Source: Clostridia bacterium (GTDB lineage Bacteria; Bacillota; Clostridia; Oscillospirales; CAG-272). Taken from it: 64,000 bases of DNA. Where the stretch lies: assembly GCA_017625755.1 (NCBI GenBank), contig JAGAKG010000037.1, forward strand, positions 16,842 through 80,841, given 5' to 3'. Below, one piece after another: positions 21,630-61,846 of the stretch (position 1 is its first letter; every line of letters begins with the position of its first letter). A program made the translations under genes and the position numbers. The notes below the pieces were generated by a model. It saw only the letters and a list, made by a program, of their open reading frames with translations, did no database searches and was not told the DNA's origin.

Positions 21630-23789
21630 ATGGATATTATCAAAAAACTTGCAGAGGAGCTGAAGCTCAGAGAGGAGCAGGTCGAGAGGACTGTCGAGCT
21701 TATCGACGAGGGAAATACCATTCCCTTTATCGCCCGCTACCGTAAGGAGGTCACGGGAAGCCTTGACGACGAGGTGCTCCGTAAGCTGGAGGACAGGCTT
21801 ACATACCTGAGAAATATAGAAAAGAGAAAGGAAGAGGTCAAAAATCTTATCGCGGAGCAGGGCAAGCTCACCGACGAGCTTGCGGCTCAGATAGATAACG
21901 CTGTGACCATTACCGAGGTCGACGATATTTACAGACCCTTCCGTCCTCACAGAAAGACAAGAGCGTCTGTCGCGAGAGAAAGAGGTCTCGGAGAGCTTGC
22001 TGAGCTCATTATGAGCCAGCTTGATAAATACGAGCCCTCGCTCATAGAGGCGGCGGAGGCGTATGTAAGCGAGGAAAAGGGCGTCGAGAGCGCCGAGGCG
22101 GCGCTGAAGGGAGCCTGCGATATAATTGCCGAGGATGTTTCGGATAATGCCGAATACAGAAAGACGGTAAGACGCATAACCTTTGATTTCGGTCTGCTGA
22201 GCTCCAAGGCGGCGAAGGACGAGGACTCGGTATATTCGCAGTATTACGAGTATTCCGAGAGCATCAAGAAGATGCCACACCACAGAATACTTGCGGTAAA
22301 CAGAGGAGAGAACGAGGGCTTTCTCAAGGTGTCCATAACCGTGGAGAAGGATATGATACTCAATTATCTGCTATCCGAGGTTATAACCAATCAGTCGAGC
22401 CCCGCTTACAAATACATATACGAGGCGGTGATCGACAGCTATGACAGACTTATCGCGCCCTCTATCGAGAGAGAGATAAGAAACGATATGACAGACGCGG
22501 CGGGTGAGGGAGCTATCGCTCTTTTCTCGGAAAATCTTCGCCACCTGCTTATGCAGGCGCCCCTTAAGGGCAAGACCGTGCTTGGATTTGACCCCGGATA
22601 TATCAACGGCTGTAAAACGGCTGTCGTCGACAAGACGGGAAAGGTGCTTGACACCGCGGTTATTTATCCCACGACGCACTCCAAGTCCAGAATAGAGGAG
22701 GGCAAGAGGATAATCTCGGCTATGGTGAAGAAGTACAAGGTCGATGTTATCGCGATAGGAAACGGCACGGCTTCCAAGGAGAGCGAGATATTTATCGCAG
22801 AGACGCTTCGTGAATCGGGCTGTGATTTCTGTAAATATATTATCGTGAACGAGGCAGGTGCGTCTGTCTACTCGGCGTCAAAGCTCGCGGCAGAGGAATT
22901 CCCGCAGTTCGATGTTATGCAGCGCTCGGCGGTTTCTATCGCGCGCAGACTTCAGGACCCTCTGGCAGAGCTTGTAAAGATAGACCCCAAGTCGATAGGT
23001 GTCGGACAGTATCAGCACGATATGAAGCAGGCAAGACTTGACGGCGCGCTCAAGGGCGTGGTCGAGGACTGCGTTAACGCGGTAGGCGTCGATATAAACA
23101 CCGCTTCCTATTCTCTCCTTTCTTATATATCGGGTATCAATATCACGAGCGCAAAGAATATCGTGAAATACCGCGAGGAGAACGGTGAGTTCAAGTCACG
23201 CTCGCAGATACTCAAGGTTCCGAGAGTCGGAGCAAAGGCATTCGAGCAGTGCGCGGGATTCTTGCGCGTGCCGCACTCGAACGAGATACTTGATAATACG
23301 GGAGTTCACCCCGAATCCTACGACGCGGCAAAGAAGCTTCTTTCTATGTTTGGTTACACTATGGATGATGTCGCCGAGGGCAAGCTCGCGGAGCTTGATG
23401 AAAAGATTTCGTCAAAGGGAAGAAAGGCTGTCTGCGAGGAGTTGGGCATAGGTGAGCCTACGCTGAAGGATATCGTCACAGAGCTGCTCAAGCCGGGACG
23501 AGATGTGCGTGATTCTCTTCCGCCTCCCGTGCTTCGTGACGATGTAATGAGTATGGAGGACCTCAAGCCCGATATGATACTCGACGGAGTTGTGAGAAAT
23601 GTTATAGATTTCGGCGCTTTCGTCGATATCGGCGTGCATCAGGACGGCTTGGTTCATATCTCCGAGCTTTCCAACCGATTTGTAAAGCACCCCTCCGAGG
23701 TGGTCTCGCTCGGCGACTCGGTAAAGGTAAGGGTGTTGTCGGTTGATTTGAAGAAAAAACGCATATCCTTGTCGATGAAAGGAATATGA
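21630..23789 (+). CDS. tex: Tex-family transcription accessory protein (S1 RNA-binding)
   Basis: 719 aa. N-terminal IPFIARYRKE, a YqgF/RuvC-like core, and a C-terminal S1 domain GVVRNVIDFGAFVDIGVHQDGLVHISEL. Confidence 0.95.
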   Translation: MDIIKKLAEELKLREEQVERTVELIDEGNTIPFIARYRKEVTGSLDDEVLRKLEDRLTYLRNIEKRKEEVKNLIAEQGKLTDELAAQIDNAVTITEVDDIYRPFRPHRKTRASVARERGLGELAELIMSQLDKYEPSLIEAAEAYVSEEKGVESAEAALKGACDIIAEDVSDNAEYRKTVRRITFDFGLLSSKAAKDEDSVYSQYYEYSESIKKMPHHRILAVNRGENEGFLKVSITVEKDMILNYLLSEVITNQSSPAYKYIYEAVIDSYDRLIAPSIEREIRNDMTDAAGEGAIALFSENLRHLLMQAPLKGKTVLGFDPGYINGCKTAVVDKTGKVLDTAVIYPTTHSKSRIEEGKRIISAMVKKYKVDVIAIGNGTASKESEIFIAETLRESGCDFCKYIIVNEAGASVYSASKLAAEEFPQFDVMQRSAVSIARRLQDPLAELVKIDPKSIGVGQYQHDMKQARLDGALKGVVEDCVNAVGVDINTASYSLLSYISGINITSAKNIVKYREENGEFKSRSQILKVPRVGAKAFEQCAGFLRVPHSNEILDNTGVHPESYDAAKKLLSMFGYTMDDVAEGKLAELDEKISSKGRKAVCEELGIGEPTLKDIVTELLKPGRDVRDSLPPPVLRDDVMSMEDLKPDMILDGVVRNVIDFGAFVDIGVHQDGLVHISELSNRFVKHPSEVVSLGDSVKVRVLSVDLKKKRISLSMKGI

Positions 23790-23990
23790 GTTTTAATAAA
23801 TTAAAATCTTTGAGAGCTTTGTTTATTGCAAATTGATGCAAAAAAAGACAAATTTGTATATATTGCACAAACAAAGACGCAAAATTTTGGAGATTTACCC
23901 TCTTTAAATTTTGCAATAAATTTGGTACAATATTAGGGTACAGAAGTATGTTTATCACAAAAGGATTATATCATAGGAGGAACTTCCCAA

Positions 23991-25100
23991 ATGGCAAGTA
24001 TTTCACTTAGACACATTTACAAAAAGTATCCGGGAGGCGTTACCGCTGTATCGGATTTCAACCTTGAAGTTAAAGACAAAGAATTTCTCGTTCTCGTTGG
24101 ACCTTCCGGATGTGGAAAGACAACGACCCTGCGTATGATTGCAGGACTTGAGGAGATCACCGAGGGTGAGCTCTTCATCGGTGACGATCTCGTAAACGAT
24201 GTTGCACCCAAGGACAGAAAGATCGCGATGGTTTTCCAGAACTACGCTCTTTATCCTCACATGACTGTTTTTGAAAATATGGCGTTCGGTCTTAAGCTGA
24301 ACAAGACCCCCAAGGAGGAGATCAAGAGACGAGTTGAGGAAGCAGGAAGAGTCCTCGGAATCACCCACCTTCTCGACAGAAAGCCTAAGGCTCTTTCGGG
24401 TGGTCAGAAGCAGCGTGTTGCGCTCGGTCGTGCTATCGTTCGTAACCCCAAGGTATTCCTTCTTGACGAGCCGCTTTCCAACCTTGACGCTAAGCTCCGC
24501 GCATCGATGAGAACCGAGCTTACCAAGCTTCACAACAGAGTTGGAACAACATTCGTATATGTAACTCACGACCAGGTCGAGGCTATGACCATGGCAACGA
24601 GAATCGTTGTTATGAAGGACGGTCTTATCCAGCAGGTCGATACTCCTCAGAACCTTTACGATTCTCCTTGCAATATCTTCGTTGCAGGATTTATCGGAAC
24701 ACCTCAGATGAACTTTATGAACGGAACCCTCACAAAGAAGGGCGACGATGTATACTTCAACTTCGAGGGCGTTTCGCTCAAGCTTCCCAAGGACAAGGCA
24801 GAGGCTCCCGAGCTTGCTGAGTACATAGGCAAGGAAGTTGTTGCAGGTCTCCGTCCTGAGTGTATCAGCGACAGTGCAGAGATTGACCAGGCAGCAGAGA
24901 ACTTCTTCAAGGTTGATGTTGATGTTACCGAGCTTATGGGTGCTGAGATTTATCTCTACCTCAGCATTGGCGAGTCTAACCTCATTGCTCGTGTTTCCTC
25001 TCGTTCCAAGACAAGAGCGGGCGACAACATAACAGTATCCTTTGATATGTCGAGACTTCACATCTTCGATAAGGATACAGAGCGTTGCATCATTCACTAA
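23991..25100 (+). CDS. Sugar ABC transporter ATP-binding protein (MalK/UgpC/MsmK type), orphan
   Basis: Walker [10 protein letters not shown], signature LSGGQKQRV, Walker [13 protein letters not shown]-terminal regulatory/TOBE-like domain. No permease or binding-protein gene is adjacent. Confidence 0.9.
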
Positions 25101-26689: not shown

Positions 26690-26908
26690 TCAGTCCAAAT
26701 AATTTTTGATCATCTCCGCGAGGATATCATCGCGGTCGAGCTTGCGGATAATGCTTCTCGCCCCGTCGGTGTCGGGAATATATGTAGGATCTTCGGAAAG
26801 AATGTAGCCCGAAAGCTGAGTTACGGGATCGTATCCGCTCTTGATGATAGCGTCCTTGACCAACTGAAGCTTAGCGGCTATATCCGAATTTTTGTTTTCG
26901 TTAGACAT
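26690..26908 (-). CDS. ireB: IreB-family regulatory phosphoprotein (UPF0297)
   Basis: 72 aa from ATG 26908 with a GGAGGT SD. GYDPVTQLSGYILSEDPTYIP is typical of this family. Confidence 0.8.
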   Translation of the reverse strand: MSNENKNSDIAAKLQLVKDAIIKSGYDPVTQLSGYILSEDPTYIPDTDGARSIIRKLDRDDILAEMIKNYLD

Positions 26909-27005
26909 ACATACCTCCGTGGTGATTTTTGCTCTAATATACATTATATACCATTGCAGACAAAATATCAAGAGAAAAATCGCAATTTAGCGAAAAGCTT
27001 CTCCT

Positions 27006-27563
27006 TTATTTTTCTTTACGAAGCAGATTTTCCAGCCGCGCCGAAAGATAAGATGCCAGAAGGAGCTTTGCGAGGTCGGGGAGAATAAAGGGGATAACGC
27101 ACGCCCAGAGCGCCGCGCTCAGCCCCGCCGAGGAATCTGACGCGCGGGAAACGGCGAGAAACCAAAGCACTCCCGCGGTATAGCATACGAGAAGCGAGAG
27201 CAGCATAGAGAGTGCTGTGACCGACTTTCTGTTGCCGAAAAATTTCACGGAAAGCGATATTATCAGCGTCGCAATAATAAATCCGATGAGATATCCGCCC
27301 GTGGCACCGAAAAGCACAGAAATTCCGCCGCGAAAGCCTGCGAAAACGGGAACGCCGATAAGCCCGAGGGTTGTATATACAAGAATCGACATAATACTTT
27401 GCCTCGGAGAGAGCAGAGCGGCGACGAGAAATACCGCGAAAAGCTGGAGAGTGAAGGAGACGCCCGATAAAAAGGGAACTGAAATATATGAGCAGACTGT
27501 GATAAACGCCACACTTATGGCTATGAGCGTCAGGTCTTGCGTGGCTCTTTGCCGTCGGTTCAT
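27006..27563 (-). CDS. bioY: Biotin transporter BioY (ECF S-component)
   Basis: ATG 27563 with an AAGGAG SD. VPFLSGVSFTLQLFAVFL...GVPVFAGFRGGISVLFGATGGYLIGF is typical of BioY. Confidence 0.85.
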   Translation of the reverse strand: MNRRQRATQDLTLIAISVAFITVCSYISVPFLSGVSFTLQLFAVFLVAALLSPRQSIMSILVYTTLGLIGVPVFAGFRGGISVLFGATGGYLIGFIIATLIISLSVKFFGNRKSVTALSMLLSLLVCYTAGVLWFLAVSRASDSSAGLSAALWACVIPFILPDLAKLLLASYLSARLENLLRKEK

Positions 27564-27699
27564 ATTTTTTTCTCCTTTCGTCGCATAGTGTCGTACCACG
27601 ATAGTATACCATTTTTGAGCTTTACTTGCAAGAGTTAATTTGAAAATGCGGTTGAATACAGCGCGGTGAGCGTGGGTGTAGATATAAGAAAGGTTATCG

Positions 27700-27935
27700 C
27701 AAACGAAAGCCTCCCTCCGAGAGGTAGCGAAGCGGCGCGAGGGTAGTGAATGACACCACGGTGTGGTGTCAGAGCCCGAGCGTGACCGAGCCGAAGCGAG
27801 ACGGGGGACCGCTTGCGGTGGAAGGAGCCTGCGTTATGAAGAAGAAAGCCTTGCTAAATTCAATGTTACGGATTCTCCTTCAGTCTCGCGTTCGCTCGAC
27901 AGCTCCCTCTCGGAGGGAGCCTTGCGAAAATCCTC
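27700..27935. repeat. Mosaic block of short hairpins (member A of an intergenic repeat family)
   Basis: Hairpins GACACCAC-ggt-GTGGTGTC (about 27752-27770) and GCTCCCTC-tcg-GAGGGAGC (27902-20). The sub-modules resemble those at 37388-37680 and 46775-47125. No credible ORF. Confidence 0.5.
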
Positions 27936-27973
27936 AAAAAGACACAACGGCTACCGCCGAAGCGGTAGCCGTT
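27936..27973 (-). terminator. Intrinsic terminator of the LRR protein gene
   Basis: Stem AACGGCTACCGC (27946-57) / GCGGTAGCCGTT (27962-73). The minus-strand tail is GTGTCTTTTT. Confidence 0.75.
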
Positions 27974-27997
27974 GATGTTTGTTCAATTTACTTTACT

Positions 27998-30550
27998 TTA
28001 TTTTCTTTTCTTCTTTCGCAGAGTTACCGCCGAGAGTCCCGACACAAGGAGAATGACACTCACCCCGCCGCCGAGGTAAGAGCCGCAGCCGCTATCAGCT
28101 TCATTATTTGCGGTTGTGTCTGTGGGGGGGACGGTCGTGTTCGCAACCGTTGTTTGCGCCGTAATTGTCTCTGTGGTTGTTACTTCAACTTTCAATTTCT
28201 CAAGCGCTTCGGTCTTGGTTTCTCCGCACTCCGAGCAGGTGTAAGACATAATTCCACCATTCTCAGTTGTTGGGGAAATTATTATAACACCATTGTTCCA
28301 TACATGGTCGGCATATCTTATATCTCCGCATGAGCAGAAGCTTATATGCTGTGTGGCATTATGCTTGCCCCAAGAACCGTATTCGTGCTCGGGAAGCTTG
28401 TCAACCGCTTCAAGCTTGGTATCTCCGCAATCGGAGCAGGTATAGATTTTTGTTCCAAAATCAGTATGCGTGGGCTGAATTGTGACAACGCCGTCATTCC
28501 AAGAATGAGGAGCAAATTCATATGCTACTTTACATTCACATAATATTTTATGCTCTGCTACGCTATATTTTTCATATATATTGTAGGTATGTTCGGGAAG
28601 CTTGTCAACAGATGTTGTCTTGGTATTGTCTCCGCAGAAAGAGCAGGTAAATGTCATAACACCCTCGGTCATATGTGTGGGCTTTGTGGTTATTTCGCTA
28701 ATGCTATAATTATGTCTGGTTACGGAAATTGTTGAAGGGAAGCTTTGAGCCAAAACAGCCCATTGCGATTCGCTTCCACAATAGGAAACTTCACTTAAGT
28801 TTGTACAGGTGCTAAATGCTCCCGCATTAATGGTTGTAAGTCCGTTACCTATTTTTACGCTCGTCAAGGATGTGCAATACTCGAACGCACCATCTCCAAT
28901 GCTCGTGACGCTGTCGGGGATAGTTACGCTCGTCAAGCCTGAGCAACCACCGAACGCATAAGATTCAATGCTCGTGACGCTGTCGGGGATAGTTACGCTC
29001 GTCAAGCCTGAGCAACCACCGAACGCAGAATATCCAATGCTCGTGACGCTGTTGGGTATAGTTACGCTCGTCAAGCCTGTGCAATCCGAGAACGCATAGC
29101 CGCCAATGCTCGTGATGCTGTTGGGTATCGTTACGCTTGTCAGACTCGTGCAATTATAGAACGCAAAATTGCCAATGTTCGTGACGCTGTCGGGAACGAC
29201 TAACTCTGTTACAAGCTTTCCGTTAAGATAAAGATTGTTCGCATAATAAAGCGGATTGGAAATAGAATTGTCAAATTTAATATTGCACCAAGCGGCAAGG
29301 TCTGTTATATATACGCTCGTCAAGCCTGAACAACCGCGGAACGCACCCTCACCAATGCTCGTGACGCTGTCGGGGATAGTCACGCTCGTCAAGCCTGAGC
29401 AACCTCTGAACGCATGCTCATATATATCATAATTTTGTCCATTGTAATCATTAGGAAGCGTCAGTTCCGTCTCGTTACCTACATATCCGAGCAAATAATG
29501 TACGCCGTTGCTATGAGTGTAGAAAAGGTAATCGTTTTTATTTACTATCTTGCTCTCACCCGTATGTACCGTATCGGCGTAATATCCGATATAACCGAAA
29601 CTGGAGCTGCCCTCTGTTATGTTAAGTGTTGAGTGGTTTATAACCTCGACAAGCTTATAGCAACCCATGAACGCATAATCTCCAATGCTTGTGACGCTGT
29701 TGCCAATAGTTACGCTCGTCAAGCCTGAGCAACCCATGAACGCATAATCTCCAATGCTTGTGACGCTGTCAGGTATCGTCACGCTTGTAAGGCTCGTGCA
29801 ATTGGAGAACGCAGCCTCACCAATGCTCGTGACGCTACCATCTGTAGGAATAACACTATTGTTACAACCCTTAATCAAGGTTTTGCTTTGTGTTTCGATA
29901 AGGCAATTACCTTCGCTGTGATATATTTCATTTTCATCATCCACAGTCACGCTCGTCAAGCCTGAGCAACCGTTGAACGCATAATTACCAATGCTCATGA
30001 CGCTGTTGGGTATAGTCACGCTCGTCAAGCCTGAGCAACCGTTGAACGCATAATTACCAATGCTCATGACGCTGTTGGGTATAGTTACGCTCGTCAAGCC
30101 TGAGCAACCGCTGAACGCAGAACTGTCAATACTCGTGACGCTGTTGGGGATTTCAATGCTCGTCAAGCCTGTGCAACCGGAGAACGCCTGCCATCCAATG
30201 CTCGTGACGCTGTTCGGTATTGTCACGCTCGTAAGGTTACTGCAATTATAGAACGCACCATCTCCAATGCTCGTGACTCCGTTTTTTATGGTAACATTCT
30301 TTATCGAAGAAATGTATGCGTACCACGGTGCATTTGTTGCTCCATATGTAAATGAGTAGTTTTTCATATAACCCTCGCCCGAGATAACGAGTTCGCCTGT
30401 TGCGGTATCGAGCGTCCAAGTGAGGTTATCTCCGTCAGCTCCGCAGGTGCCGCTGTAAACGGTTTCCTCTGTTGCCGCCGAGACGGTTACAAGGGCAATC
30501 GCGCCGATAAGAACTGTCAGCACTGCTAAAAGTGTGATAAGTTTTTTCAT
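27998..30550 (-). CDS. Large secreted BspA-type LRR surface protein with Cys/His-rich C-terminal modules and a C-terminal TM anchor
   Basis: ATG 30550 (MKKLITLLAVLTVLIGA signal) after a GGAGGA SD. It has about 17 units of the type CSGLTSVTIPNSVTSIGxxAFxGC, then three Cys/His modules, a Thr-rich linker, and SGCGS + TM + RKKKRK. The ORF-track start at 30673 is an upstream extension. Confidence 0.85.
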   Translation of the reverse strand: MKKLITLLAVLTVLIGAIALVTVSAATEETVYSGTCGADGDNLTWTLDTATGELVISGEGYMKNYSFTYGATNAPWYAYISSIKNVTIKNGVTSIGDGAFYNCSNLTSVTIPNSVTSIGWQAFSGCTGLTSIEIPNSVTSIDSSAFSGCSGLTSVTIPNSVMSIGNYAFNGCSGLTSVTIPNSVMSIGNYAFNGCSGLTSVTVDDENEIYHSEGNCLIETQSKTLIKGCNNSVIPTDGSVTSIGEAAFSNCTSLTSVTIPDSVTSIGDYAFMGCSGLTSVTIGNSVTSIGDYAFMGCYKLVEVINHSTLNITEGSSSFGYIGYYADTVHTGESKIVNKNDYLFYTHSNGVHYLLGYVGNETELTLPNDYNGQNYDIYEHAFRGCSGLTSVTIPDSVTSIGEGAFRGCSGLTSVYITDLAAWCNIKFDNSISNPLYYANNLYLNGKLVTELVVPDSVTNIGNFAFYNCTSLTSVTIPNSITSIGGYAFSDCTGLTSVTIPNSVTSIGYSAFGGCSGLTSVTIPDSVTSIESYAFGGCSGLTSVTIPDSVTSIGDGAFEYCTSLTSVKIGNGLTTINAGAFSTCTNLSEVSYCGSESQWAVLAQSFPSTISVTRHNYSISEITTKPTHMTEGVMTFTCSFCGDNTKTTSVDKLPEHTYNIYEKYSVAEHKILCECKVAYEFAPHSWNDGVVTIQPTHTDFGTKIYTCSDCGDTKLEAVDKLPEHEYGSWGKHNATQHISFCSCGDIRYADHVWNNGVIIISPTTENGGIMSYTCSECGETKTEALEKLKVEVTTTETITAQTTVANTTVPPTDTTANNEADSGCGSYLGGGVSVILLVSGLSAVTLRKKKRK
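29946..30083 (-). repeat. Perfect 69-bp tandem duplication inside the LRR gene (one 23-aa LRR unit x2)
   Basis: 29946-30014 and 30015-30083 are identical by eye and encode SGLTSVTIPNSVMSIGNYAFNGC twice. Confidence 0.9.
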
Positions 30551-30633
30551 TTTCTTTTCCTCCAAAAGACAAGTGTGAAATAAAAAAGTGCGCAGCCGAA
30601 GCCGCGCACTAAAAATGCATGACTCCGTATTGC

Positions 30634-55280: not shown

Positions 55281-57521
55281 TTACTTAGCAACCGACATAC
55301 CATAAAGCAGCAAAGCTCTTTCGGGCATAGCGCTTTCAATAGTCACGCTTGTGAGCGCGGTATCCTTCTTGAGAGCTACCGAAAGCGTGTAAATTCTGTA
55401 ATTCTCATAGTTCTTGTCGTAAGAGAAGGTAACAGCGTTCGTGAGCGCAGGCGACATCGGGTTGATAACAGACGCCGCGTATGTGGTAACGACGGTGAGC
55501 AGCTCGATACCGTTTCTCAGAGGAACTATCTGCTCGCTTCCGTCAGAGTATCTCAGCGTCATATTTGCGCAGACCTCTCCAAACTCGCCGTAGATAGGCT
55601 GTCCGAGGCAGTAAAGCGCGTTTCCTAGGACAACCAGCTTATCTCCCGTAACCTCTGTGTTTACCGTGTATGAGGGGAAGTTTTCGCTGATTACGACAGG
55701 CTTCTTGAGGGAATTGAACTTGAGGTTTCCAATAGATGAAGCGCTCTCGGGAAGTCTTGGTCCCTTGGCAATTCTGCGGTACTTGCGGTGATAGAATATT
55801 CCGCGGCTCGCCTTGGAATCCTCGGTTGCGAGTCTCCAAGCCTCTTTCTGCTCCTCGCAGTCGGGATATTCGAGCGCGATAGCCTCGGAATTGAGGACAT
55901 TCGTTGCTGCAGTCGTGTGAACTATCATCTCCGAGGGAGCTGTGGGCTTCGTGTTAAGCTCTCTGATAAATTTCTGATATGCGTAGTAATTTATCTTAGG
56001 CTTGCGGTCGACAGTAACGAGACCCTCGTTCTGTATACCGTCAACGCAGCAGTCGGAATCACGGTTGAACTCATACATATCTGCAAACGCCCAATAGAAC
56101 ATACCCGCAAGCATATCCTTGTCACGCGCCGCCTTCATTTTGTTGCAGAATTTTGTGAAGCAGGCAGGGTTGTCGGTAACATGCCAGCCCCCCCACTCCG
56201 AAAGTATCAGGGGCTTGCCAACAAATGACTTAAATACATTGTCAAGCGTCTGCGGACCGGGAGTTTTGTTCTGTGAGCCTCTGGTGACATGGTATACACC
56301 GGGACCGTAGGGGTGGAATGTGTAGAAATCTATGTTAGCCTTGTCGAACATCTCAATAGTCATTTCGGCGCACATACAATTAGCGCCCGAAACATATCTG
56401 TCGGGGTCAAGACGGCGTGTCGTTTCGACCGACGCGTTGAGGAATTCCTGCGTGAAGATACACTCGTTAAAGCTCATCCAGAAAGCAACGCAAGCGTGGC
56501 TGCGGTCACGGTGAATTGTTCTTGAAAGCACCTCAATAGCGCCCTCGGAGATAGTGGGATTACTCATATCCGACCACCACAGTCCCGACTCCTCGCTTAT
56601 AAAGAGTCCGAGACGGTCTGCCATCTCAACAACTCTCTTGTCGTGAGGGTAGTGAACGAGTCTTACGAAGTTTGCTCCAAGCTCCTTTATCATACGAAGG
56701 TCGCGCTCGATATCGGCATCGGGGAGGGTCTGTCCCTGCTCGAGAGAGCCGAGGTCGTGACGGCAGATGCCGACGAAGAAGAATGGCTCGCCGTTGAGAT
56801 AGAACTTCTTGCTATCCATCTTCAGCTCTCTGAAGCCGACCTTCATCGTGTATTCATCAATAGGCGCTCCGTTCTTTACGAGAAGCACCCTCAGGTCATA
56901 AAGATTAGGTGTGTTCGGCGTCCAGAGCTTTGGGGAAACAAGCGAAAAAGCAAGCTTTTCTGCCGCCCCCTTGGAGGACGCGACGACCTCACCACCGTCC
57001 AAAAGCTCAACTCGCGCAGTAATACCGTCAAGCGAGCCGTCGCAGGTCAGCTCAACGGAAGCATCTGCCCTTGTGAAGCCCTCTGAGAGCGATTGTCTGA
57101 ACCATATCTCGGAGATAAAAGTTTCAGAGCATATCTCAAGATATATCGCGCGGATAATACCGCCGTAGCAGCACCAACCGTCAACAGGACCGTATGGAGC
57201 GGTGATGTCTTCAACGAATACCTGAAGCTTGTTGCTTTCCTCAAGGTATTCGGTTATGTCAAACGAATAATGACAGTAGGGAAGGGGCGAGCCGAGAAGA
57301 TGCCCGTTTATATAAAGGTCGCCCTTGTAGTTGATACCCTCTGTTGTGAGAATAACTCGCTTTCCCGCGGGAACCGAGAGCTTGAACTCTCTGAGATATT
57401 CTGATTTTCCCGAGCAGAAGTATGAGCCAGGGACCGTACGGGTGGTGTAATCCCCGCCGTTTATGCGGAATTTCCAATCTCCGCCGAGGTCAATTCTTTC
57501 TCTGAGTTGATTTTGCTTCAT
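55281..57521 (-). CDS. Glycoside hydrolase family 2 enzyme
   Basis: 746 aa. Sugar-binding N-domain, TIM barrel with NFVRLVHYP, acid/base WMSFNE, nucleophile region ILSEWGGW. Confidence 0.85.
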   Translation of the reverse strand: MKQNQLRERIDLGGDWKFRINGGDYTTRTVPGSYFCSGKSEYLREFKLSVPAGKRVILTTEGINYKGDLYINGHLLGSPLPYCHYSFDITEYLEESNKLQVFVEDITAPYGPVDGWCCYGGIIRAIYLEICSETFISEIWFRQSLSEGFTRADASVELTCDGSLDGITARVELLDGGEVVASSKGAAEKLAFSLVSPKLWTPNTPNLYDLRVLLVKNGAPIDEYTMKVGFRELKMDSKKFYLNGEPFFFVGICRHDLGSLEQGQTLPDADIERDLRMIKELGANFVRLVHYPHDKRVVEMADRLGLFISEESGLWWSDMSNPTISEGAIEVLSRTIHRDRSHACVAFWMSFNECIFTQEFLNASVETTRRLDPDRYVSGANCMCAEMTIEMFDKANIDFYTFHPYGPGVYHVTRGSQNKTPGPQTLDNVFKSFVGKPLILSEWGGWHVTDNPACFTKFCNKMKAARDKDMLAGMFYWAFADMYEFNRDSDCCVDGIQNEGLVTVDRKPKINYYAYQKFIRELNTKPTAPSEMIVHTTAATNVLNSEAIALEYPDCEEQKEAWRLATEDSKASRGIFYHRKYRRIAKGPRLPESASSIGNLKFNSLKKPVVISENFPSYTVNTEVTGDKLVVLGNALYCLGQPIYGEFGEVCANMTLRYSDGSEQIVPLRNGIELLTVVTTYAASVINPMSPALTNAVTFSYDKNYENYRIYTLSVALKKDTALTSVTIESAMPERALLLYGMSVAK

Positions 57522-57578: not shown

Positions 57579-58754
57579 TTATTCAAAGTTCATAGAGTTG
57601 ATAACGATATCCGAAACCGCGAGTGCCGCGCCGAGAGCGGGGGCGTTGAGGTCAAGCGCGGAATAGCGTACATTTATTGGCGAGCTTTTGTAGAATATAT
57701 GCTTTTGCAGATGCTCTACCATTTCGTTGCCGAAAAGGTCCTTGAATTGGATCATCGCGCCGTAAAGCACGAATGTGTCTATCGGAAGAATGTTCGCAAG
57801 CGTGCTAAGAGCAATTCCGAGATATTTGCTCATATCCTTGAAAAGTGAAACGCATATTTCGTTGCCCTCGACCGCCATCAGAGCAAGCGCCTTGAAATCT
57901 ATGTTCGGGTCGTATGGCGAGCCCGAAAGCTCGTAATATCTTCTCAGTATACCGTCGACAGAGGCATACATTTTAAGACAGCCGCGGTTTCCGCACCTAC
58001 ATATGGGACCGTCGCTGTTGACGCAGATGTGACCAAGCTCACTTATATATCCGTTCGTGCTTATCACTCCGTCTATCGCGAGTGAAAGACCGATACCCTT
58101 GTCGAGACGGAGCAGGGCAATATTGTTGATGTCCGGCTCCTTCTGGAACTCAAGCATCTTTTCTGCGACCATAATGCAGTCGGGGTCGTGCATAATAAAT
58201 GTTTTTATGTCGAATTTCTTTTCGATAAGCTCGGTAAGGCGGACATTTTCCCACTCGCTTACCTGAGGGAGATATACCGAAATTCCGTGCTCGGTATCAA
58301 CTATACCCTGAACGGCGATGCCTATTCCTATGACATTGCCCTTTTCGTCGAAATCTATCAGCTCTGATATAGCGGTGAAGAGAGTTTCGATTACATTATT
58401 GTATGTCAGCATAGTGAGAGGGTGGAAGGTCTGCTTGAGAATACCGTAGCGCAGGTCGGTCAGTACCGCGGTGATACCCATAATGTTGAGGTCGACGCCT
58501 ATGATATGGTTTATCTTTGTGTTCAGCGCGTAATAAACGGCTCTGCGACCGACGCTGCCCGTGGACTTTCCCGAGGGAACTATGAGTCCGAGCCTTTCAA
58601 GCTCGTCTACCATAGTGCATACCGAGCCCCAGCTGAGCATCGTTTTTGCCTGAATGTCGCGCTTTGACATGGGGCCATACTTGTGGATAGCAAGAATGAC
58701 TGTGTGCAAATTGTTCTGCCGTATTGATGCGGTGGTGATTATCTTTTTTGTCAT
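57579..58754 (-). CDS. ROK-family transcriptional regulator
   Basis: N-terminal wHTH (MSKRDIQAKTMLSWGSVCTMVDELERLGLI) and the ROK Zn motif CRCGNRGCLKMY. Confidence 0.9.
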   Translation of the reverse strand: MTKKIITTASIRQNNLHTVILAIHKYGPMSKRDIQAKTMLSWGSVCTMVDELERLGLIVPSGKSTGSVGRRAVYYALNTKINHIIGVDLNIMGITAVLTDLRYGILKQTFHPLTMLTYNNVIETLFTAISELIDFDEKGNVIGIGIAVQGIVDTEHGISVYLPQVSEWENVRLTELIEKKFDIKTFIMHDPDCIMVAEKMLEFQKEPDINNIALLRLDKGIGLSLAIDGVISTNGYISELGHICVNSDGPICRCGNRGCLKMYASVDGILRRYYELSGSPYDPNIDFKALALMAVEGNEICVSLFKDMSKYLGIALSTLANILPIDTFVLYGAMIQFKDLFGNEMVEHLQKHIFYKSSPINVRYSALDLNAPALGAALAVSDIVINSMNFE

Positions 58755-59035: not shown

Positions 59036-59156
59036 ATAGCCGAGGACTGTTGGTTATTTGTCCGTTTTTAACGCCTTAATAATATCAATTCTTGATACAA
59101 TTGAGATTAATTTACAGCGTTACTTACAAATTCTAAAAAAGGAGAGTGATGGAATT

Positions 59157-60668
59157 TTGAAGAACAGATTTCTCAAAATTACTGCAATTCTTCTCGTCTT
59201 TCTAATGCTTATGTCTTTGTGCATTTCGTGTAAGAAAACAGAAGAAGAAGAAGAGGGAGAGGAGACGACCGTTTCAACCGTAGAGGGTGAGACATACCGT
59301 GACGACCTTCCCAGAGATCTTAACTACAAGGGTGCCGATGTTAACTTTGTATCCAGAGCACACGACTGGTATAAGAACGAGGTAACCGTCGAGTCCGACA
59401 ACACCGACGACATCGTCAACGAGGCGGTTTATAACCGTGAGAAGGATGTTGAGAAGCGACTCGGCATCAATATCATCAACACGATGCTTGACGACGGTGG
59501 AAAGACGGGCGAGGAGGCTTATGCCCGTGTTACCGAGCAGGTAAAAATGGATGTAACCACGGGAACAGGACTTTACGACATCGCTATTAACAATATGTAT
59601 CATACGATGGGCGTTGCGTCCGAGGGCTTCCTTTACAACCTTTATGATGTTCCGAATATAGACCTCACAAAGTCTTATTATTCGCAGAACTACAATTTCA
59701 AGGGTACAATAAACGGCAAGCTTTACACCACAACGGGTGATGCTTCCCTTACATTTATCAAGTTCGCCTTTGTAACCTTCTTTAACAAGGAAATTGCAAA
59801 TGCCAACAAGATTCCCGACCTTTATCAGACTGTTCTTGACGGAAACTGGACAATAGGCTATCAGAAAGAGCTTATCGCGGGACTCTATGACGATATCGGA
59901 ACAGAGACCGATGTAAAGGACGAGGGAGATGCGTACGGACTTGTTATGAACCCCGTTACCGCTATCGACCCCTACTGGAGCTCGTTCGACCTCTCCATTA
60001 TCTCGATGGATGTTGAAGGAAAGCTCTTCCTTGACTGTGATACCGCAAAGGCGTCCACTGTATATAACCTTATATATGACCTTGTATACATCAACCCCGA
60101 TGTATATTGTGCTCCTCACCAGTCGGATGACGGAGAGTTTGCGACCCAGGCAAAGATGTTCGCGAACAATCAGGCTCTCTTCACAACTCTCAGAATGGCG
60201 TCCTGCGAAGATGCCAATATGAGAAATATGGAAGCTGAGTACGGAATCATTCCTATGCCTAAGTGGGAAACGGGACAGGATCAGTATTATTCCTACTGCC
60301 ACGACCTCTTCTCTGTATACGGAATCTCCGCAGGAGTTACAGCTGACAGACTCGAGATGGTAGGCGCTGCGTTTGAGTGCTTCTTCTCCGAGAGTGACCA
60401 GTGCCGTTACAACCAGTTTGAGGTTGCCCTCAAGGTTAAGTACCAGAGCGACACGAGCGCAGGTCAGATGCTTGACCTCGTTGTTGACAATGTCAAGATA
60501 GACACAGGTTGGATCTATTCCAAGTCTGTTAACAAGATAGGTCTTATTATGCGTGAGCTTATTACCGCAAAGCTTAGCGGTGTATTCAAGAGCAAATGGG
60601 ACGGAAATACTATCAAATACAACAACGCGATAGACGCTCTCGAAGCAGAGTTCGGAATTGTTGATTAA
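59157..60668 (+). CDS. Large extracellular solute-binding-protein-like lipoprotein
   Basis: TTG 59157 is 10 nt after an AAGGAGAG SD. Lipoprotein signal LVFLMLMSLCISC, then an acidic linker. The ~500-aa size and composition resemble family-1 sugar SBPs, but this assignment rests on resemblance only. Confidence 0.55.
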   Translation: MKNRFLKITAILLVFLMLMSLCISCKKTEEEEEGEETTVSTVEGETYRDDLPRDLNYKGADVNFVSRAHDWYKNEVTVESDNTDDIVNEAVYNREKDVEKRLGINIINTMLDDGGKTGEEAYARVTEQVKMDVTTGTGLYDIAINNMYHTMGVASEGFLYNLYDVPNIDLTKSYYSQNYNFKGTINGKLYTTTGDASLTFIKFAFVTFFNKEIANANKIPDLYQTVLDGNWTIGYQKELIAGLYDDIGTETDVKDEGDAYGLVMNPVTAIDPYWSSFDLSIISMDVEGKLFLDCDTAKASTVYNLIYDLVYINPDVYCAPHQSDDGEFATQAKMFANNQALFTTLRMASCEDANMRNMEAEYGIIPMPKWETGQDQYYSYCHDLFSVYGISAGVTADRLEMVGAAFECFFSESDQCRYNQFEVALKVKYQSDTSAGQMLDLVVDNVKIDTGWIYSKSVNKIGLIMRELITAKLSGVFKSKWDGNTIKYNNAIDALEAEFGIVD

Positions 60669-60721: not shown

Positions 60722-61846
60722 ATGAAAAAAATATTGGCTATAACATTATCATTGCTGTTCATACTCACACTTATGACAGCGGCAATCGGCGCTACTGACG
60801 GTGGTGACGGCGTAGGCGACGAATCGGGCGAACTCAGCACCACAATAGACACCAACAATCAGGAACCCTCATACCTTCCTACGAACATCAACGGTGAAGC
60901 TACATACGCATACAAGTCTGTCGTAAGCTTTGACGAAGATGATATCGCAGGCAGACTTCAGCCTCAGACGAACCAGCAGAACAACCGCCCCCGTTGCGCG
61001 TGGGAAATCGTTGAAACAGGCGGTGCTAACGGAAAGGCGCTCAAGATGGTAGCTAACGGAAACACCGCAGAGGGTAACATAGACCTTGGCGGAGTTCAGG
61101 ACTGGAGCAAGTGGGACGGTCTTATGGTTTATGTAGATATGTCCGGCGTTATTCCGAAGGATGGCAAAGCAGGTAAGGGCGGTATAGGTATAAGACTTAC
61201 CTCCGCGCTTTACGATAAGGGTATCTTTGCTTGGACAAGAAACGGCAACCCCAACGCAAATGTTGCTGAGATTCCCGGATTTGAGATAAACGCTTGGTAT
61301 CTTGTTGACGGAAGCTGGGTAAAGGCTGATCAGGCTGCTATGGACGGTGAGAGAATCCAGGTTCCCGAGGATTTCGCGGGCTGGGTTTACATTCCCTTTA
61401 CAAGCTACATAACGATACAGGGCTCCGAGGGTACTCCCGAAGGTGGCGTATACCAGTCTGAGTTCATCAATAAGATAATGCTCCTCAGCGGACCTTACAC
61501 ATTTGCTGATCCCGCAGACGGCGAGGAGAATACATCTGTGGTTATCGTTGACGAGATAAACCTCGTTAAGCTCGGCGTAAACAACGAGGAGATGGAGGAG
61601 ATACTCACGGCTACCGAGGCAACAACTACCGAGGCAACGACCGAGAAGCGCCAGAAGGCAACTATGCCCACAACCGCTGCAAAGACCAACGCTAAGACGA
61701 CTGCCGCAGGCGCAGCAGATGAAACAACTGCTGAAGCTGAGGAGGAGAAGAGCGGCTGCGGAAGCACGATTACCGTTGCATCGGTTATGATGATCGCGGC
61801 AGCTGCAGCAATTCCCGCAGTAGCATCTAAGCGCAGAAGAAAGTAA
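60722..61846 (+). CDS. Secreted CBM-like protein with a Thr/Ala linker and a C-terminal SGCGS + TM + KRRRK tail
   Basis: Signal peptide MKKILAITLSLLFILTLMTAAIGA, a ~250-aa Trp/Gly-rich beta-type domain, TEATTTEATTE linker, then SGCGSTITVASVMMIAAAAAIPAVASKRRRK. Confidence 0.75.
   Translation: MKKILAITLSLLFILTLMTAAIGATDGGDGVGDESGELSTTIDTNNQEPSYLPTNINGEATYAYKSVVSFDEDDIAGRLQPQTNQQNNRPRCAWEIVETGGANGKALKMVANGNTAEGNIDLGGVQDWSKWDGLMVYVDMSGVIPKDGKAGKGGIGIRLTSALYDKGIFAWTRNGNPNANVAEIPGFEINAWYLVDGSWVKADQAAMDGERIQVPEDFAGWVYIPFTSYITIQGSEGTPEGGVYQSEFINKIMLLSGPYTFADPADGEENTSVVIVDEINLVKLGVNNEEMEEILTATEATTTEATTEKRQKATMPTTAAKTNAKTTAAGAADETTAEAEEEKSGCGSTITVASVMMIAAAAAIPAVASKRRRK

Follow-up and report, generated by a model that had tools for sequence, protein, structure and literature searches.

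A cysteine-centred C-terminal tail on secreted proteins of Clostridia and its genomic coupling to a CPBP protease clade and an Lgt paralogue

The 64,000-nucleotide window analysed here (G000:C24:16842-80841) comes from a clostridial assembly (G000) of 2.24 Mb in 76 contigs that is 98% complete. It encodes two secreted proteins, a leucine-rich-repeat (LRR) surface protein and a 374-residue protein of no known family, that end in the same kind of tail: the pentapeptide SGCGS, a hydrophobic helix and a basic cluster. We propose, with a probability of roughly 0.6, that this tail is a Cys-type tripartite C-terminal sorting signal, a Gram-positive counterpart of the MYXO-CTERM/myxosortase system, and that its Cys is lipidated, probably by a divergent Lgt paralogue (Lgt2), after which a CPBP (Rce1-like) protease removes the helix. 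The tails form a signal family with an invariant Gly-Cys, they are portable between unrelated proteins, and they are coupled in genomes to one CPBP clade and more loosely to Lgt2. An earlier note on this DNA had suggested a Cys-centred, non-LPXTG tripartite signal served by a dedicated enzyme encoded elsewhere; that suggestion is supported by nine tails in the genome, by the co-occurrence of the CPBP clade and by an Lgt2-CPBP gene pair on another contig (C1).

Translation confirms both ends as the note had described them. The LRR protein terminates in ...NNEAD-SGCGS-YLGGGVSVILLVSGLSAVTL-RKKKRK and the 374-residue protein in ...EAEEEK-SGCGS-TITVASVMMIAAAAAIPAVAS-KRRRK. In each, 28 residues follow the Cys, which is to say exactly the 26 after SGCGS that had been counted before, and the acidic patch reported in front of the tail is present together with a linker that is Thr/Ala-rich. 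The helix of the first tail, between SGCGS and RKKKRK, is 20 residues long. Both proteins begin with a Sec-type signal peptide (MKKLITLLAVLTVLIGAIALVTVSAATEE at the N-terminus of the LRR protein), and their bodies are unrelated, as had also been stated (best BLASTP E = 17). A Pfam scan assigns the LRR protein to PF13306 LRR_5 with an E-value of 1.8e-121; in its layout the signal peptide is followed by LRR_5 repeats, a stalk of Cys/His-rich repeats, a linker rich in Thr and, last, the tail. The same scan matched no Pfam family to the 374-residue protein, so the label 'CBM-like' that it had been given is unconfirmed. Neither gene has a candidate processing-enzyme gene adjoining it in the neighbour annotation.

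The tail is not confined to these two proteins. A six-frame scan of the whole 2.24-Mb genome found the Cys tail on nine proteins, and a profile built from the tails found recovers precisely those nine at E<=1; the genome-wide motif check proposed earlier thus yields nine unrelated carriers, not two. All nine share one pattern: a patch of acidic or Lys residues, then [SGEK]-G-C-[GKS]-[SGA], a hydrophobic helix and finally a basic cluster. The LRR tail is the best match of the tail profiles (67.1 bits in the genome search and 61.7 bits in the class-wide search described below), and the second tail scores 61.0 bits in the genome search. The carriers are mutually unrelated and include an LRR_5 protein, a Metallophos (calcineurin-like phosphoesterase) protein, a GDSL lipase, a Zn-ribbon-rich fragment and several proteins without a family; every one with a complete N-terminus has a signal peptide. 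When open reading frames (ORFs) of at least 150 residues with a terminal helix and basic cluster are considered, 10 of 56 have Gly-Cys 23-35 residues from the end, against a background of 2.1% in all 3184 such ORFs (binomial p ~3e-7 for 10/56); one of the ten, on C28, looks spurious. On contig C33, two tail genes lie about 2 kb apart (22770-24698 and 26889-28091; L009), and one of the tails encoded there is a variant, K-K-K-G-C-K-G, with 34 residues after the Cys, the longest among the tails examined.

Conservation is concentrated on the Gly-Cys pair. Across 48 non-identical tails from this and other genomes, a set chosen by the profile and hence by a tool that favours the motif, the Cys is present in 48/48 and Gly precedes it in 47/48, while the flanking positions vary. 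Between 23 and 34 residues follow the Cys, and the tripartite architecture is found in all nine tails of this genome and in the 48 overall. The only tail without Gly at -1 reads N-K-C-G and belongs to the substrate gene that stands before the Lgt2-CPBP pair in G469 (L021:380-2140, G469:C62). Homologues of the 374-residue protein (37-88% identity) keep K-[SGK]-G-C-G-S next to a hypervariable linker; GCGS is kept in five of them, including those at 37-43% identity, so that the motif passes the ortholog comparison that the note had called for.

Curated models do not cover this tail. Both whole proteins and both isolated 50-residue tails were scanned at E<=10 against NCBIfam, and neither the proteins nor the isolated tails score above the cut-off of any C-terminal sorting model of NCBIfam or Pfam; the comparison with xxx-CTERM models suggested in the earlier note therefore leaves the tail without a model. 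None of MYXO-CTERM (TIGR03901), Synerg-CTERM (TIGR04564), JDVT-CTERM and CGP-CTERM (TIGR04288) matches the tails at that limit. The best sorting-tail matches, all below cut-off, are Loki-CTERM at 14.6 bits (cut-off 19.9) and GG_III-CTERM at 14 bits (22). An LPXTG signal was considered and rejected: TIGR01167 reaches 12.7 bits where its cut-off is 15.9, its match covers just the helix and the basic cluster, and no LPXTG-like motif is present. The window had been described as lacking a sortase-like gene, and the same holds more widely, with no PF04203 match and neither a rhomboid nor an exosortase detected in the 98%-complete genome.

The genome encodes four CPBP (Rce1-like) proteins and two Lgt proteins. 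One gene of each kind forms a pair on contig C1, where the CPBP gene lies 32 nucleotides downstream of the Lgt2 gene on the same strand. The C1 CPBP matches PF02517 at 65.9 bits (cut-off 22.4), and in seven orthologues the motifs EExxFR, FxxxH and HxxxN/D are invariant, as are the residues E126, E127, R131, H164 and H208, with N or D at +4 from H208. The clade signature is GAGxG...LQVGYSxLxG. The protein falls below all Mrt cut-offs: it scores 32.3 against Mrt_core (NF040914; cut-off 100), 27.6 against MrtJ (75), 21 against MrtP (250) and 17.6 against MrtS (130). A search of PDB sequences with the CPBP profile returned nothing at E<=1, and a large protein collection holds 886 clusters of the clade at E<=1e-30, with generic source names only. 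Lgt2 matches Pfam LGT (PF01790) at 120.4 bits (threshold 24.9), and the housekeeping Lgt, on C14, exceeds the TIGR00544 cut-off of 118.9 with 189.5 bits. Two LspA genes (signal peptidase II, PF01252) are also present in the genome (G000:C18:20531-20950 and G000:C28:9239-9676).

Aligned to Escherichia coli Lgt (5azb), Lgt2 retains the equivalents of Y26, R143, G154, R239 and E243. We take these five, together with N146 and E151, to be the important or active-site residues of the E. coli enzyme, as judged from mutagenesis and structure. In place of the canonical GRxGNFxNGE..G, Lgt2 has a 'Cys-type' signature, GR[ILVMF]GC...GCC[HY]G, and GRxGC...GCC is invariant in the 67 Lgt copies that stand beside CPBP. 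The Cys-type subfamily also occurs in L012, L013, L021, L023, L025-L030 and L116.

The distribution of tails and enzymes over genomes points to the CPBP clade as the partner of the tail. About 535 genomes were sampled, 151 of the same order and 399-400 of the class; related genomes are not independent. Within the order, the tail profile finds 9 tails in G000, 4 in G114 and 3 in G075, with weak matches in G015 and G098. Orthologues of the C1 CPBP are found there only in G114 (204 bits) and G075 (168 bits), every other match being at or below 55 bits, and orthologues of Lgt2 score 248 and 236 bits in these two genomes, where they lie directly upstream of CPBP; the next best match has 99 bits. 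Tails, CPBP orthologue and Lgt2 orthologue are all absent from five other genomes of the family. The class-wide test was set beforehand, with the pattern of the order expected to recur. The three CPBP orthologues were combined into a profile, which matched only G291, G469, G365 and G532, members of three further families, and the tail profile found 13, 15, 2 and 2 tails in these same four genomes, plus a match in one extra genome, G264. The Cys is present in the inspected tails of G365 and G532 and in two tails of the cassette locus of G469. The matches in G015 and G264 were rejected as false tails, having no Cys and coming from genomes without the CPBP; that in G098 is a single match of 20.9 bits to the helix region only and was left uninspected. 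Cys tails and the CPBP clade therefore coincide in 7/7 tail-positive genomes and in 0 of ~530 others, which answers the profiling check of the earlier note with a single CPBP clade. Because the genomes are a sample, are related and include positives from four families, we take this co-occurrence as a strong association and not as a probability.

Lgt2 follows a looser pattern. All seven tail-positive genomes have a Cys-type Lgt, and in four of them it stands beside CPBP. A strict link between Lgt2 and the tail was rejected, since five sampled genomes (G236, G167, G502, G511 and G415) have a Cys-type Lgt with neither a CPBP orthologue nor a Cys tail (E<=5). The Cys-type Lgt thus looks necessary for, yet not specific to, the tail system. 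In G236, G167 and G502 it accompanies another Lgt, and in G365 and G511 no other Pfam LGT match was found, so it may still be an active transferase.

Gene order also links the tail, Lgt2 and CPBP. In G114, G075 and G469 the order is tail gene, Lgt2, CPBP, and the Lgt2 and CPBP genes overlap by 13-20 nucleotides. When 185,579 species genomes were scanned for the signature peptide of the CPBP clade, 236 loci were confirmed and 80 fetched, all 80 from uncultured gut or rumen Clostridia. Lgt2 lies directly upstream of CPBP in 63 of the 75 further loci with enough upstream sequence. A Cys-tail gene occurs in the flanks of 16 of the 80 species loci and is directly upstream of Lgt2 in 15; the spacing expected by chance in a genome with 9-15 tails is about one tail gene per 150-250 kb. 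No third gene is conserved after CPBP: in 72 loci the genes that come next form small groups without relation to one another, the biggest of which has 9 members. No fused Lgt-CPBP protein was found among the 80 loci.

Co-folding of CPBP with the tail is consistent with their pairing and gives it weak support, to which we attach little importance. The predicted complex has an interaction prediction score from aligned errors (ipSAE) of 0.48 against 0.00 for the best control, a mark reached by 58/80 solved complexes and 2/110 mismatched pairs, although the range up to 0.60 holds only 7 of the 80 solved complexes but both of the mismatches. At least 78% of contacts are common to the runs and the predicted local distance difference test score (pLDDT) of the partner is at least 59, figures to be read with the caution that a membrane helix may pack on any membrane protein and that the controls were perhaps not membrane helices.

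Based on these data we propose the following pathway. The precursor would be exported via Sec through its N-terminal signal peptide, after which the C-terminal helix would keep it in the membrane; the Lys/Arg cluster would then lie on the inner side and the Gly-Cys at the outer face. The Cys thiol would next be lipidated, most likely by Lgt2, as the synteny suggests, or else by the housekeeping Lgt. Just after the modified Cys, the CPBP glutamic intramembrane protease would cut, as Rce1 cuts CAAX proteins; we infer this step from the strict co-occurrence, the intact catalytic motifs and the analogy with MrtX. Removal of the helix would leave the protein held by its C-terminal lipid. Going further, and tentatively, at a little under even odds, we suggest that the Cys-type Lgt beside CPBP is the transferase that places diacylglycerol on the Cys of the sorting signal, in inverted topology, so that substrate, Lgt2 and CPBP would make up a self-contained C-terminal lipoprotein pathway of single-membrane bacteria; the same idea would also point to the lipidation step of MYXO-CTERM-type signals in general.

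Several observations weigh against the sorting-signal pathway, and some of them fit other explanations. Cleavage and lipidation are proposed here from genomic data, and it is not obvious what a single-membrane bacterium would gain by giving up a helix anchor in favour of a lipid one. The tail could be a plain stop-transfer type I anchor with a positive-inside cluster, its Gly-Cys serving a disulphide, a metal contact or a helix cap, with no cleavage and no lipid. Cys-less anchors of helix plus basic cluster do occur on other secreted proteins of this genome (C51, C53 and C54), the failure of all curated sorting-signal models agrees with such an anchor, and two homologues of the 374-residue protein (P0006 and P0008) end in a Cys-less helix and KKKK (KSNTGLIIGII...) where others have KSGCGS, from which it follows that a plain anchor can suffice. 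The source genomes of these two proteins are predicted to be without the CPBP clade. However, a plain anchor does not require that Gly-Cys be invariant and stand at a constant distance ahead of the helix in unrelated proteins from at least four bacterial families. Nor would it explain why Cys tails were found only where one CPBP clade is present, or why tail genes lie directly upstream of Lgt2-CPBP in G114, G075, G469 and the 15 further loci. We therefore regard this explanation as quite unlikely.

Other doubts concern the enzymes. All four CPBP paralogues of the genome match the Mrt models weakly and below threshold, so Mrt scores cannot pick out the C1 copy, and choosing the protease by these scores was dropped because the four score alike. 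Lgt2 is below the TIGR00544 cut-off (85.1 vs 118.9) and has Cys where the E. coli enzyme has N146 and E151 (GRIGCLFAGCCHG vs GRWGNFFNGEAYG in the housekeeping copy). Its clade, as the five genomes described above indicate, is wider than the system, and it does not adjoin CPBP in 12/75 loci or in 3/7 tail-positive genomes (G291, G365 and G532). The two Cys substitutions, the breadth of the clade and the separate location of Lgt2 in these three genomes would suit a protease that acts without lipidation by Lgt2: CPBP might recognise Gly-Cys directly and release the protein or pass it to another acceptor, or the housekeeping Lgt or another acyltransferase might modify the Cys while Lgt2 does another job. 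That strict co-occurrence holds for CPBP and not for Lgt2 favours such a scheme, as does the processing by MrtX of its substrate in E. coli, which has the housekeeping Lgt only (PMC11980579). Yet it leaves aside the direct and often overlapping adjacency of Lgt2 and CPBP in 63/75 loci and the presence of a Cys-type Lgt in every tail-positive genome examined, and Rce1-type enzymes characteristically act on a lipid-modified Cys (PMC11980579); we consider it unlikely. It is also conceivable that the Lgt2-CPBP pair and the tails are unconnected in function, CPBP/Abi proteins often being tied to, for example, bacteriocin immunity, and that the co-occurrence reflects shared descent or a mobile island. 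The seven positive genomes span only four families, and in G000 the pair sits amid housekeeping genes (IMP dehydrogenase upstream and an HD-domain gene downstream, with MnmA and SecA also there) and has no tail gene close by. Against this stand the scatter of the four families among about 100 sampled and the mixed composition of their members: in family f1, 3/8 sampled genomes carry both tails and CPBP and 5 have neither; in family f45, both occur together in 1/9; and in genus g235 of family f96, G365 has both and G415 and G511 neither. The 15 of 80 loci with a tail gene directly before the pair, set beside the chance spacing, argue the same way, and a pair unrelated to the tails seems to us very improbable.

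The sorting-signal pathway that we favour resembles systems already described. Cys-type C-terminal sorting signals were described by Haft (2023; 10.1101/2023.06.07.544157), and MrtX was confirmed experimentally in 2025 (PMC11980579). In the MYXO-CTERM model, the protein is exported, the precursor is held by its helix, the Cys is lipidated by an 'Lgt-like' enzyme and a CPBP protease cuts after the lipidated Cys; MrtX cleaves in a Cys-dependent manner, and the lipidating enzyme is unknown, with Lgt the leading candidate (PMC11980579). The MYXO-CTERM (TIGR03901) system of Myxococcota, with MrtX, MrtC and MrtP, has much in common with the present one. Both have an invariant Cys in a Gly/Cys-rich signature (generically GCGC in MYXO-CTERM) ahead of a helix and a basic cluster; in both, a genome encodes many substrates unrelated to one another and an Rce1-like CPBP dedicated to them; and in both, lipidation followed by cleavage after the Cys is proposed (PMC11980579 and 10.1101/2023.06.07.544157 for MYXO-CTERM). 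The two differ in that the hosts here are Clostridia, presumably single-membrane, so that a type II secretion step is lacking; no MYXO-CTERM model matches the tails and the CPBP reaches 32 bits where the Mrt_core cut-off is 100; the basic cluster is Lys-rich or mixed and not Arg-rich; and the protease is genetically coupled to an Lgt paralogue, a coupling not reported for the myxobacterial system. Synerg-CTERM/MrtS, JDVT-CTERM/MrtJ and CGP-CTERM/MrtA are likewise Cys-containing tripartite signals, each with its own CPBP subfamily. JDVT-CTERM has a conserved neighbourhood of protease and substrate genes (PMC11980579), and Synerg-CTERM has a Ser/Gly-rich signature ending in one invariant Cys, in a style near S-G-C (10.1101/2023.06.07.544157). 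Their hosts, however, are Synergistota, Proteobacteria and Thermococcales, their tail models give no match here at E<=10, and the MrtS and MrtJ models are equally weak on all four CPBP paralogues of this genome. By sequence comparison, then, the tail system appears to work like the MYXO-, Synerg-, JDVT- and CGP-CTERM systems but belongs to none of those curated families, because its tails and its CPBP stay below the cut-offs of the respective tail and Mrt protease models.

More distant parallels help to place the proposed chemistry. As in the eukaryotic and archaeal processing of CAAX proteins, a Cys in the C-terminal region would be lipid-modified before a glutamic intramembrane protease of the Rce1 family removes what follows, and the CPBP here belongs to PF02517, with EExxxR, FxxxH and HxxxN/D. 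CAAX proteins have 3 residues after the Cys and use a prenyltransferase and Rce1, whereas in the present tails the Cys is followed by about 23-34 residues, a membrane helix among them, the proposed lipid is diacylglycerol from an Lgt-type enzyme and not prenyl, and processing would take place on the outer membrane face. The N-terminal lipoprotein pathway (lipobox, Lgt, LspA) also has a small residue (here Gly) before a Cys at the edge of a membrane helix, and there too an Lgt-family enzyme is teamed with an intramembrane protease for removal of the helix; Lgt2 exceeds the Pfam LGT threshold with 120 bits. In contrast to that pathway, the topology is inverted, with the helix after the Cys, there is no Leu at -3, CPBP takes the place of LspA, and the Lgt2 signature is GRxGCxxxGCC and not GRxGNFxNGE. 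In LPXTG/sortase systems, too, surface proteins secreted by Firmicutes end in a tripartite signal, but no LPXTG-like motif is found here and no sortase gene was detected in the genome. Firmicutes, Clostridia and Lgt go unmentioned in the Haft preprint ('Lgt' occurs zero times), which describes no Lgt partner (10.1101/2023.06.07.544157), and a full-text literature search found no paper on a Firmicute version of a Cys-type sorting system. The new elements are a presumed one-membrane host, the absence of a type II secretion step and a dedicated Lgt paralogue.

The features are listed in Table 1. Genes for BioY and a class II aldolase flank the LRR gene. The membrane-near stalk of the LRR protein (window ~28150-28950, minus strand; L006:1-660) contains about four repeats of a module of ~50 residues with CxxC...H...C spacing, and the C13 paralogue has weak zinc-ribbon Pfam matches. 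The 374-residue protein is encoded within a glycan-utilisation cluster, according to the neighbour annotation. In that setting, the 536-residue lipobox protein encoded directly upstream may be a solute-binding lipoprotein.

Table 1. Coordinates of the features discussed (window positions, except for the two genes on contig C1)
Feature	Position	Strand	Remarks
Tail 1, C-terminal sorting signal (proposed) of the LRR protein	28001..28093	-	SGCGS-YLGGGVSVILLVSGLSAVTL-RKKKRK; from translation
Gene of the secreted BspA-type leucine-rich-repeat surface protein	27998..30553	-	851 residues counted from the MKK start
Tail 2, C-terminal sorting signal (proposed) of the 374-residue protein	61751..61843	+	SGCGS-TITVASVMMIAAAAAIPAVAS-KRRRK; from translation
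Gene of the secreted 374-residue protein	60722..61846	+	Signal peptide MKKILAITLSLLFILTLMTAAIGA; no known family
GH2 gene, glycan-utilisation cluster	55281-57521		Neighbour annotation
ROK regulator gene, glycan-utilisation cluster	57579-58754		Neighbour annotation
Lipobox protein gene, glycan-utilisation cluster	59058-60668	+	536 residues; classical lipobox LCISC; no Pfam family
Pectate-lyase-like protein gene, glycan-utilisation cluster	from 61978		Neighbour annotation
Lgt2, divergent Lgt paralogue	G000:C1:10916-11806 (L001:6917-7807)		296 residues; Pfam LGT match
CPBP, Rce1-like	G000:C1:11839-12684		281 residues; PF02517 match

Importantly, the analysis places the two tails of the window in a nine-member family, locates an Lgt2-CPBP pair on another contig, and distinguishes a CPBP clade that co-occurs with the tails from an Lgt2 clade that is broader than the system. 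The result is a genetic link in Clostridia between a Cys tail, an Lgt paralogue and a CPBP. The carriers include adhesin-like LRR proteins, hydrolases and proteins encoded in glycan-utilisation clusters, and because no curated model recognises the tail, they are annotated without anchoring information. Since these loci couple a dedicated Lgt paralogue to the protease and often have a substrate gene ahead of the two, they offer a compact three-gene cassette in which the lipidating enzyme could be tested directly. If the proposal is true, the tail would mark a sortase-free route of surface anchoring in Firmicutes, one that at least 236 species-level genomes of Clostridia from gut and rumen would share.

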